The notes beneath the pieces were generated by a model, which saw nothing but the letters and a program-made list of their open reading frames with translations, did not search any database and had not been told where the DNA came from. A program made the translations under genes and the position numbers. A stretch of 64,000 nt of DNA, from assembly GCA_964573805.1 (NCBI GenBank), contig CAZNKP010000020.1:75647-139646 (forward strand), given 5' to 3'. Shown piece after piece: positions 14,806-17,193 of this stretch (within the stretch, counting starts at the first letter, position 1; each line of letters begins with the position of its first letter). The DNA comes from an uncultured Desulfobacterales bacterium (GTDB lineage: Bacteria; Desulfobacterota; Dissulfuribacteria; Dissulfuribacterales; QOAL01).

Positions 14806-17193
14806 TTACTTGAGCTTTATAGCCTTGTTTACCTTATCCATCCAATACTTGCGTTTTTCCTGAGGCATAAAAATGATAAATTCTCCAATTGCCCTTTGGA
14901 CTCCCATAAAATCTATTAGGAAATTGTATACCGCATTTGCCGCATCCAATTCGGCACTTAGATACTGACCTTGGGCATCCAGCAAATCAATTATTGTCTT
15001 TATGCCGTGAATATATGAATCCGTTACAAGATCGAGATTCTTTTTTGCAGCTAGGGCGGCTTCCCTGGTGAGGGTAATGGAGGGATAGGATGCCCTTGTC
15101 CGATTTATAGCTGCAAGGACCTCCTGAATTATAACTTCTGCAGCTGCATTTCTGTCTATTCTAAGTCTAGCGAGTTCTTGTTCGAGCCTTCCTGCCCTTG
15201 CTGCAGTTTTTCCACCTTCAAAAAGGGGAATCCTGGCAAAGACGCCCACATTCCAATCAGTATCATCAAAACCTGTACCCTCACGCCTTCCTCGGCCGTC
15301 TTCCGAAAGGTACTGATCCACCTTCCATTCTACAGTAAAGTCTGGAAGCCAAAGTTGGCGTCTTGCTCCTTTGGCAAGTCTTGCTTTAGCCTTTATCGTC
15401 TCGTCAAATCCCTTTAATTCCGGCCTTACAGCTACTGCCTCTTGCGCTGCGAACCTTTTGAACTTTCTAAGTAGCAAGGGATTTTCCATAAGCTTTAAAT
15501 AAAATTTATCTCCAATGATAAAAAGCGGATCATCGAGACTGGCCTCTTCAGGGATAAAGGCCTCGTCTAGTGGTCTGTGCAGAATACGGTTAAGGGCCTC
15601 CATGGCATCCATGGTCTCGGACTCCCTGTAAAGGACCTCTCTACGATCATTGGCAAACTTGGACTGCCATCTGTAGACTTCATCTGGACCTGCAGCCCCT
15701 GTAGAAAACTTGATTTGGGCCCGTTCTAAATTGGCCTTAGTCAGTTTTAGATTCTCCTTGTAGATCCGTTCAATGGTTCTGGCCCTTAATACATTGAGAT
15801 AAGCAACGGAAGCATCGTAAGTTACATCAAGCTTTATCCGTTCCTTGTTCATATGTCTTGCCTGTTGAAGGTGCTCTTCTGCAGTATAATTTGCCCATTT
15901 ATTTTCGGAATATAGTAAGATGGTTCCCCCAGCCGTCCCTGTCCAGGCCCGTTCAGGTGTAAGCCCGCTGCCAGCTTTGGCCCTGTCTTGGTCTACAGCC
16001 CTGTAACCTGTCCCTATATCAACCCTTGGAAGAAGCTCTGCCATTTTCTCTTTGACTGCATGTTCTCCAGCCTGTACCCTTACTCGGGCAGATTGGAGCT
16101 TCAAATTGGCAGAAACGGCCTCCTGAACGGCCTTGGCCATATTGAGTCTCCTGCCCTTTTCCTCCTTTTCGTTTAATATCGTGGCCTTGGTAAGGAGAAT
16201 GAGATTTGGAGATAACCCAAGCTGCCTGGCAGTTGCCATATTTATGGTAAGCTCTCTATCACGTGTAAAAGATGGCTTTATAGTTGGGATGTTCCCATTA
16301 TTGTGAAGGGTGTCTAACAATGCTACTGATGCCCTTCTTGCAAGTAGATTTTGCTTGTCACTGGGTTCTAAACCAGCAAGAAGACCAAGCTCTACCTGTT
16401 TTGCATCCCACATTGCAAATCCCACGATTTTCTTTTGGATAAGCAGTTGGGCAAGTTTGGCCTTTTCTTTATCGCTCATATGCCAAAGGGATCCAACAAA
16501 GACGGCCTGGATTCCTTTAGGAATCTTATCTACAGTCCAGCCGGCTGAGGAAGTAGCGCCTACAAGGGTAACCTCAAGACCATGGCGTTTGCCAAAGTCA
16601 TGCAGCATGTCTTTGATTCCTTTTATGCCTTTTATTTCTCTTTCATCTAAGATGATTGCACATTTTTTAAAAGGAAATATCTCTTTAAATGTTTTTAGAT
16701 CATTATCAAGATAGTAAGTGGCGTCTATGGGAATAAAATTCGTGATCCCGGGCCTTTTTTTGTTTTGGCTCTTTATCCGTTTTGCAAGGTTATAGTAGGA
16801 GGCATATGGGGCTATAATAGGTTTGGGGATGTTTTTGAACGAAAGGACCTGGGAGGCAGAGACAACACCAAGGGCAAATATTACGTCTGGACCAGAAGAC
16901 GAGAAGAGCCGTTTCAGGGCCTTCTTGATCCCCGTTACAGAATCTTGGCCATGCAGGGTCCATTTTTTAGAAAAAGATACCTTGTAATAGGGCCTCAAAG
17001 ATTGTTTTAAATGCTCCTTGTATAGGCTAATAAGTTTCCTGTCTGTTGGGGTTGCCCCATCTGTTACGAATCCCACACGTACTAGTTTGGGCTTATTAAG
17101 GTCTATATTGCATTGCTGTCCACTGGCATTTGACAGGAATAATCCCAGGATCGCAAACGGTATTACAAAGGCCAAACTATACAATTTTGCCAT
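14806..17193 (-). CDS. Outer-membrane efflux factor (TolC/OEP family) fused to an N-terminal periplasmic substrate-binding-protein-like domain
   Basis: Start at ATG 17193 (GGGAG Shine-Dalgarno) gives the signal peptide MAKLYSLAFVIPFAILGLFLSNASG. The N-terminal ~350 aa resemble the ABC_sub_bind family by eye (KLVRVGFVTDG..., ...INMATARQLGLSPNLILLTKATIL). The C-terminal ~440 aa are typical OEP helical repeats. Last gene of the RND operon. Confidence 0.75.
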   Translation of the reverse strand: MAKLYSLAFVIPFAILGLFLSNASGQQCNIDLNKPKLVRVGFVTDGATPTDRKLISLYKEHLKQSLRPYYKVSFSKKWTLHGQDSVTGIKKALKRLFSSSGPDVIFALGVVSASQVLSFKNIPKPIIAPYASYYNLAKRIKSQNKKRPGITNFIPIDATYYLDNDLKTFKEIFPFKKCAIILDEREIKGIKGIKDMLHDFGKRHGLEVTLVGATSSAGWTVDKIPKGIQAVFVGSLWHMSDKEKAKLAQLLIQKKIVGFAMWDAKQVELGLLAGLEPSDKQNLLARRASVALLDTLHNNGNIPTIKPSFTRDRELTINMATARQLGLSPNLILLTKATILNEKEEKGRRLNMAKAVQEAVSANLKLQSARVRVQAGEHAVKEKMAELLPRVDIGTGYRAVDQDRAKAGSGLTPERAWTGTAGGTILLYSENKWANYTAEEHLQQARHMNKERIKLDVTYDASVAYLNVLRARTIERIYKENLKLTKANLERAQIKFSTGAAGPDEVYRWQSKFANDRREVLYRESETMDAMEALNRILHRPLDEAFIPEEASLDDPLFIIGDKFYLKLMENPLLLRKFKRFAAQEAVAVRPELKGFDETIKAKARLAKGARRQLWLPDFTVEWKVDQYLSEDGRGRREGTGFDDTDWNVGVFARIPLFEGGKTAARAGRLEQELARLRIDRNAAAEVIIQEVLAAINRTRASYPSITLTREAALAAKKNLDLVTDSYIHGIKTIIDLLDAQGQYLSAELDAANAVYNFLIDFMGVQRAIGEFIIFMPQEKRKYWMDKVNKAIKLK

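Follow-up and report, generated by a model that had tools for sequence, protein, structure and literature searches.

A predicted Venus flytrap domain joined to a complete TolC-type outer-membrane factor in a widespread family encoded with RND pumps

Outer-membrane factors (OMFs) are usually viewed as passive ducts of ∼450 residues, with an N-terminal lipid as their sole decoration. What else such a duct may carry, and what for, is the question raised by a gene in a 64,000-nucleotide stretch of DNA from an uncultured Desulfobacterales bacterium (GCA_964573805.1, contig CAZNKP010000020.1, positions 75,647 to 139,646 of the forward strand; this whole stretch is called the window here). A preliminary description, made from the sequence alone, had placed this gene third in an operon encoding a periplasmic adaptor (membrane fusion protein, MFP), a resistance–nodulation–division (RND) transporter and an OMF, and had recognized by eye an ABC_sub_bind-type periplasmic binding domain ahead of a canonical two-repeat OEP region. 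Open reading frames (ORFs), Pfam and NCBIfam confirm the gene order and the length of 795 a.a., the N-terminal motifs quoted in the description are present in the translation, and both domain calls proved correct, by the evidence given below. It is almost certain that the architecture is what it appears to be, a flytrap domain joined to a complete TolC-type channel, and that it defines a family.

The fusion gene is a single ORF (14806-17193, minus strand), and its translation contains no internal stops. The longest reading in the ORF listing is 14806..17250 (minus strand), which opens at an upstream TTG; judged from the sequence, the ATG at 17193 is the biologically sensible start. The product (the window protein) is divided as follows:

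17119..17193, minus strand: signal peptide, residues 1-25 (MAKLYSLAFVIPFAILGLFLSNASG, followed by QQ), of the signal peptidase I type, with cleavage at A-S-G judged by eye.
16174..17088, minus strand: type-I periplasmic-binding-protein (Venus flytrap) domain, residues 36-340 (∼305 a.a.), from profile, AlphaFold and Foldseek.
16144..16173, minus strand: linker, residues 341-350 (the KEEKGRRL region), of fixed length across the family.
14881..16143, minus strand: complete TolC-type OMF, residues 351-771, from Pfam OEP, the TolC alignment and Foldseek.
14806..14880, minus strand: C-terminal tail, residues 772-795, and stop codon, from the translation; a helix is modelled at 778-792.

The channel half matches Pfam OEP (PF02321) in two repeats with 131.7 bits (cut-off 22), and OEP was matched in all 60 family members tested. 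In a phmmer comparison with 1EK9 (E 4e-18), residue N351 of the window protein aligns to residue 2 of mature Escherichia coli TolC and the alignment reaches TolC residue 406. Foldseek matches this half to TolC, OprM and CusC (1EK9, 7NG8, 3D5K, 3PIK and others) with target-normalised TM values of 0.75-0.81 and E-values down to 6.5e-20. Neither the curated NCBIfam TolC model TIGR01844 (108.2 versus a cut-off of 225.15 bits) nor the NodT-type model TIGR01845 (49.6 versus a cut-off of 210) reached its threshold, and by these scores the fusion OMF belongs to the OEP superfamily as a divergent member, outside the curated TIGR01844 subfamily. No lipobox is found in the window protein, whose signal peptide ends in SNASG followed by QQC; a lipobox-like motif within the first 45 residues is present in 14 out of 225 family members and absent from the other 211. 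The linker shows the same regularity: in 191 out of 225 members (85%), 13 residues fall between the columns that hold A337 and L350 in the alignment. A full-length AlphaFold model of the monomer, built with the family alignment, has a mean predicted local distance difference test score (pLDDT) of 87.8 and a predicted TM score (pTM) of 0.77, with a pLDDT of 83-85 in the linker; a pTM of 0.77, when the larger domain makes up just 56% of the chain, suggests that the two domains have a defined mutual orientation in the model.

The N-terminal domain was harder to place. Residues 1-375 gave no direct match in Pfam, NCBIfam or PDB sequences, and PF04392 (ABC_sub_bind) did not match the window protein even at E<=10. 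This silence reflects a limit of sensitivity rather than a lack of homology. A relative that is 35% identical to the window protein (P0001, E 1e-53) scores above the PF04392 gathering threshold (39.8 versus 25.9 bits), and PF04392 is matched by 28 out of 60 full-length family members at E<=1e-3; about half of the family, the window protein included, is missed by this Pfam model. The preliminary description had allowed that the N-terminal region might show no homology to binding-protein folds, but a profile of 26 N-domain sequences (with that of the window as the first) finds such homology when searched against the PDB, over nearly the whole domain: 3LKV at 4.2e-9, 3LFT at 4.9e-8 and 6HNI at 5.8e-6. 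An AlphaFold model of the N-domain alone has a pLDDT of 87.6 and a pTM of 0.84; its top five Foldseek matches are to 6HNJ, 3LKV, 6HNI and 3LFT (E 1e-10 to 3e-12, TM ∼0.7), and the next are to ribose and xylose binding proteins and to the GABA-B, iGluR and natriuretic-peptide receptor domains, which are type-I Venus flytraps. The domain is thus best described as a divergent PF04392 lineage, with a homology that is transitive and profile-based and a fold that is given by the model.

Conservation within the family is uneven. The most conserved motif is ELTINMATARQLG (INMATAR), with 84-100% per column, and the family as a whole retains the PF04392 motifs N(V/L)xG/Y, xxDP and (L/V)xIN...A..(L/I)G: 215 out of 225 members keep the Asn of NVTG, and 156 out of 225 keep the Asp of TDP. 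Near-invariant positions are D45, G46, G109, K124, P125, A128, N152, Y155, G270, R286, N318, T321 and R323. The window protein differs from the consensus of the family at H61 (E61H), A113, Y133 (D133Y), P155 (Y155P), K191, V257 (P257V) and N299, and these deviations explain why the PF04392 model misses it. With Y133, the window clade is without the Asp that is common in the xxDP motif. At residues 140-146 (16756-16776), a loop typical of the window clade replaces the family segment LQGLPxxxGxSG, and the pLDDT falls below 50 at 142-148.

The family is large. With the N-domain alone as query, an exhaustive HMMER search collected 1046 cluster representatives at E<=1e-3 (594 at E<=1e-10); the top 150 are mostly 780-830 a.a. 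long and match at residues ∼30-335. A word-indexed search with the same query returned one match, and the exhaustive and full-length searches showed this to be a limit of the indexing. The N-domain is followed by an OEP half in 139 out of 151 retrieved proteins, the other 12 being short and fragment-like (several stop within the first OEP helix). The preliminary description had proposed a survey of the architecture across genomes; a scan of one genome per species, which used a single motif (L[TV]INMATAR) and a 6-sequence alignment, confirmed it in 272 species genomes from more than eight phyla, nearly all of them metagenome-assembled. The taxa include Desulfobacterota, Acidobacteriota, Nitrospirota, Gemmatimonadota, Nitrospinota, Bacteroidota, Pseudomonadota, Hydrogenedentes, Dadabacteria and Deferrimicrobia, and the nearest relatives of the window protein are from Desulfobacterota, with 65% identity. 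One homologue (L019) belongs to 'Thermodesulfobacteriota bacterium B35', whose genome does not bear the label of a metagenome assembly. Both halves lie in one ORF in nearly every complete locus. Mean pairwise identity is 36% for the N-domain versus 44% for the OEP half, so that the N-domain is nearly as well conserved as the channel, and the divergence of the two is correlated (r=0.70). By these comparisons the fusion is an old, conserved unit in many phyla, kept under selection together with the channel.

An error of sequencing or assembly that merged adjacent binding-protein and OMF genes in the window, or a missed stop or frameshift as the preliminary description had put it, was also considered. 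One locus (L001) is indeed called as two genes (384 a.a. and 398 a.a.), and similar breaks are seen in L032, L033, L057 and L073. But more than 200 independent sequences have a single ORF with the fixed linker, an identical window protein is present in separate NCBI/Logan, ENA and JGI entries (uncultured metagenome), and the OEP part, if it were a gene of its own, would have no signal peptide; the chance of such an artefact is negligible. The two-gene reading of L001 itself was rejected: in tblastn the homology runs unbroken across the shift of frame, and the supposed binding-protein gene encodes the first OEP helix, so that L001 is a broken copy.

Its break is at 1340-1355, within the first OEP helix-strand region. 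A shift of frame or a premature stop breaks the fusion gene in several related contigs (L001, L032, L033, L057, L073, L021, L042 and L018); these breaks are probably assembly or long-read indel errors, with pseudogenes as the alternative. In one further member (P0113, 1190 a.a.), a Ser/Thr protein kinase domain (Pkinase, 146 bits) precedes the PF04392-like domain and the OEP channel; P0113 is either an artefact of merging in the gene call or an unusual architecture, which would need to span both membranes.

Members of the family already have names in databases. JGI labels some of them 'outer membrane protein TolC/ABC-type uncharacterized transport system substrate-binding protein', and NCBI uses 'TolC family protein' or 'hypothetical protein'. 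Full-text searching of the literature found no description of, or experiment on, a fusion of a binding-protein domain with a TolC-type channel, in agreement with the preliminary description, which knew of no characterised example. The fusion architecture is real, widespread and uncharacterised.

Which pump does the duct serve? The fusion gene lies directly within an RND operon in 63 out of 69 loci with enough flanking sequence, in the order MFP-RND-fusion in 38 loci, namely the window and its relatives from Desulfobacterota, and in the order fusion-MFP-RND in 25 loci (the remaining phyla). In the window the order is MFP-RND-OMF:

20353..21468, minus strand: periplasmic adaptor (MFP), 371 a.a., operon gene 1; TIGR01730 RND_mfp, 263.6 bits.
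17210..20350, minus strand: RND inner-membrane transporter, 1046 a.a., TriC/MexK-like, operon gene 2; Pfam ACR_tran, 469.9 bits.
17200..17205, minus strand: Shine-Dalgarno-like AGGGAG, 6 nt 5' of the ATG of the fusion gene, from reading the sequence.

The stop codon of the RND gene is at 17210-17212, and the ATG of the fusion gene, the third gene, is 17 nt beyond it. The MFP has the Pfam domains HlyD_D23, HlyD_3 and Biotin_lipoyl_2. Among solved chains, the RND protein is matched best by MexK (576 bits) and 6VEJ_A (573 bits), which we take to be TriC, versus only ∼137-184 bits for AcrB, MexB and MdtB; the MFP is matched best by the TriA-TriB fusion 6VEJ_P (156 bits), by 4L8J and by MexJ (109 bits). 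These best hits assign the partner pump to the TriABC/MexJK clade. MexJK and TriABC of Pseudomonas aeruginosa work with OpmH, a non-lipidated TolC-like protein, and this agrees with the TolC-type, lipobox-free character of the fusion OMF. No ABC permease or ATPase gene was found by Pfam among the window neighbours that form the fusion operon.

The N-domain could still act as a binding protein, and the residues of its cleft bear on this. The proteins of 3LKV, 3LFT and 6HNI hold Phe, Trp and Tyr, respectively, in the cleft between the lobes by a common set of contacts (PMC6816091), which in TrpX numbering are T108, A127, T129, D152 and N233 (PMC9382623). Read from the 225-member alignment with 3LKV and 3LFT added, at ∼17% identity and hence with some uncertainty, the corresponding columns are:

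Contact T108: V/P/I/L in the fusion family, V110 in the window protein.
Contact A127: F/Y in the fusion family, Y130 in the window protein.
Contact T129: I/V/A in the fusion family, S132 in the window protein.
Contact D152: S/T/A in the fusion family, A158 in the window protein.
Contact N233: L/F/M or S/D/T in the fusion family, M239/S240 in the window protein.

All five known amino-acid contacts are substituted in the fusion family, mainly by hydrophobic residues. By this alignment the amino-acid-binding signature is lost and the cleft would be more hydrophobic, and with all five contacts replaced the N-domain does not count as a substrate-binding protein of the conventional kind.

The position of the domain on the duct follows from its point of attachment. 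The N-terminal helix of TolC rises from the equatorial domain to the transmembrane domain (PMC13082787). Since this helix starts at the equatorial domain and a linker of ∼10 residues leads to TolC residue 1, the N-domain is expected on the outside of the duct, along its lateral wall. On the lateral surface of TolC, YbjP fills the stretch from the equatorial domain to the membrane and there mimics the lipidated N-terminal arm of other OMFs (PMC13082787), and for the equatorial domain a contact with peptidoglycan has been proposed (Shi et al. 2019, as cited in PMC13082787). It is quite probable, from this geometry, that the three ∼35-kDa domains of a trimer form a collar on the lateral wall, at or near the equatorial domain; with the same good confidence the N-domain would lie neither at the periplasmic aperture, which is tens of angstroms away, nor inside the lumen. 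The preliminary description had suggested that a domain at the periplasmic end of the exit duct plugs or gates it, or that the domain recruits substrate; attachment at TolC residue 1, at the equatorial domain, makes the first geometrically unlikely, and the same geometry argues against the second.

Recruitment of substrate deserves a closer look, as the ancestry of the domain lies in transporter-associated solute-binding proteins and its gene is strictly linked to an RND pump; the domain would then bind a pump substrate in the periplasm and hand it over to the transporter or the duct. RND pumps, however, load their substrates elsewhere, in the porter domain of the transporter close to the inner membrane. 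The domain would also sit outside the closed wall of the alpha-barrel, where no lateral entry is known, and with its canonical ligand contacts lost such a capture is very unlikely.

The flytrap fold is also that of receptors, and the domain could make the duct a sensor: it would bind a periplasmic ligand other than an alpha-amino-acid, and its closure would be relayed through the N-terminal helix and the equatorial domain to channel opening or pump assembly. Flytrap domains relay the closure on a ligand in this way in the GABA-B, iGluR and natriuretic-peptide receptors, whose domains are the next-best structural matches after the PF04392 proteins. The two-lobed type-I fold is modelled with good confidence, the near-invariant D45/G46, G109, A128/P129 and N152/Y155 lie at the C-terminal ends of beta-strands, where type-I folds contact their ligands, and a rigid linker of fixed length would suit mechanical coupling. 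Yet five out of five known ligand contacts of the PF04392 family are replaced, and the window protein deviates at positions that the fusion family conserves (Y155P, P257V, D133Y and E61H). Moreover, gating of TolC is driven by the adaptor hairpins at the periplasmic tip, far from the equatorial domain, and we consider a ligand-sensing duct of this kind rather unlikely.

The proposed contact of the equatorial domain with peptidoglycan (Shi et al. 2019, as cited in PMC13082787) brings in a tether to the envelope, in which the domain would bind peptidoglycan (e.g. a stem-peptide moiety) or a lipid from the outer membrane's inner leaflet at the equatorial level and so fix the position of the duct. 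Such a tether would suit the absence of a lipid anchor from the fusion OMFs and the descent of the domain from amino-acid binders (PMC6816091), and a hydrophobic cleft would be compatible with a lipid. The amino-acid-binding residues are gone, however, Pfam shows no likeness to known peptidoglycan-binding modules, and the case is wholly inferential; we regard a tether of this kind as unlikely.

The reading that we favour is a built-in lateral accessory collar on the duct of a TriABC/MexJK-type pump, and we give it, as a whole package, a probability of roughly 50%. The flytrap domain would brace, position or help assemble the non-lipidated TolC-type duct in the envelope, as an equivalent in cis of YbjP or of the lipid arm; its cleft would be filled, or would bind some ligand other than an amino acid, and it would deliver no substrate to the pump. 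For the role alone, that of a lateral accessory module, our preference from this analysis is tentative, a little short of an even chance. Anchoring of the channel thus appears the most plausible of the three functions suggested in the preliminary description.

Several points weigh against this collar. The position of the domain is deduced from its attachment point, and the model is that of a monomer; a domain of ∼60 angstroms at the equatorial level could point down to the adaptor hairpins and not up to the membrane. The near-invariant polar residues D45, K124, N152, Y155, R286, N318, T321 and R323 could line a pocket as well as form an interface, and a two-lobed flytrap fold is not obviously needed for a purely structural role. 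YbjP, finally, is dispensable for efflux under laboratory conditions (PMC13082787), so that the analogy with YbjP informs the location of the domain and not its function. A bolder version, which is doubtful though possible, makes the flytrap collar a sensor in the duct, where a ligand, probably hydrophobic or envelope-derived (or peptidoglycan or lipid), would tune pump opening, assembly or positioning; if this were true, it would be the first ligand-regulated or envelope-tethered channel of the TolC family.

The lateral collar, if it exists, has wider implications. Many environmental phyla would have permanently fused a large receptor-type domain to what is presumably the lateral or equatorial region of the duct, and a solute-binding-protein fold has been diverted from import and attached to an export machine. 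YbjP is the first protein known on the lateral surface of TolC and was reported just in 2025-2026; this recent finding of the lateral surface as a binding site makes the fusion family timely. The family offers a natural system in which to probe the lateral surface and the equatorial belt, be it for positioning at the peptidoglycan, biogenesis or regulation.

Other genes near the fusion gene were also inspected. On the side opposite to MFP and RND there are genes for an unknown 192-a.a. protein, NhaA, an Ion_trans_2 protein and PqiA/MlaD proteins. The 192-a.a. protein (14147-14725, minus strand) has a signal-peptide-like N-terminus and its gene lies 80 nt 3' of the fusion gene; it has no Pfam or NCBIfam match, and in three relatives (L006, L008 and L009) its homologue adjoins NhaA and not the pump. 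No terminator-like site was found between the two genes in a scan whose counts were not above those for shuffled sequence, and the promoter scan, with counts likewise no higher than for shuffled sequence, gave a weak candidate at 21776-21748 (minus strand).

The Ion_trans_2 protein (232 a.a., 11882-12580, minus strand) has the canonical K+ filter TLGYGD. In 12 out of 81 loci, which come from several phyla, an Ion_trans_2 gene lies no more than 10 kb from the fusion gene, and in six of them the distance is below 500 bp; in relatives it is found, for example, at 2770-3342 (L001), ∼12392-12988 (L038), 9083-9646 (L042), 2559-3155 (L043), 11925-12578 (L061) and 4770-5444 (L076). By a rough estimate this recurrence is far above chance, which suggests a functional link with the fusion gene. 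Close downstream of NhaA and Ion_trans_2 come two PqiA genes and then the gene for a 912-a.a. protein with seven MlaD domains (7759-11878, minus strand), a LetB/PqiB-like intermembrane lipid-transport tunnel, and a cluster of envelope-spanning systems is thus assembled in a single stretch.

Upstream of the pump operon, and divergent from it, is a gene for a methyl-accepting chemotaxis protein (HAMP and MCPsignal; 22240-23763, plus strand). It is followed by a group of minus-strand genes (23829-30108) that encode a DUF1318 protein, an unknown 566-a.a. protein, a histidine kinase, a SpoIIE/HATPase_c_2 partner-switching protein and a PAS-STAS protein. No regulator gene, of the TetR type or other, directly adjoins the pump operon.

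How does the fusion compare with known systems? With E. coli TolC (1EK9) and the OpmH-type OMFs of P. aeruginosa it shares two OEP repeats, collinearity with TolC 2-406 (TM ∼0.8) and the absence of an N-terminal lipid anchor, and its gene accompanies those of a TriABC/MexJK-type RND pump; it differs from them in the extra flytrap domain of ∼305 residues at residue 1, which about doubles the mass of the protomer. Lipidated OMFs (OprM, CusC and CmeC, and the NodT subfamily) also have an extra N-terminal element, which extends from the equatorial domain along the lateral surface, but theirs is a short extended arm with an acylated cysteine, whereas the fusion has a folded domain and, in 211 out of 225 members, no lipobox. 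The PF04392 proteins VC_1101 (3LKV, Phe), SP1069/TrpX (3LFT, Trp) and CD0873 (6HNI, Tyr) are related to the fusion domain by profile homology and are its best structural matches; in contrast to them, it does not serve an ABC importer as a free or lipid-anchored binding protein but is covalently part of an outer-membrane channel, and it fails two functional hallmarks of these proteins, the ligand contacts and the linkage to an ABC transporter. The closest parallel in placement is YbjP (a DUF3828 lipoprotein; 9TG4, 9V52; PMC13082787, PMC13095208), a globular periplasmic module that is bound, three per trimer, to the lateral surface of a non-lipidated TolC, at a site that coincides with the expected location of the fused domain. 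The two have unrelated folds and no sequence similarity (Pfam finds no match to PF12883, DUF3828, in the window protein), and YbjP is a separate, lipid-anchored binder of ∼170 a.a. that is held non-covalently, whereas the fused module is twice as large, covalent and non-lipidated.

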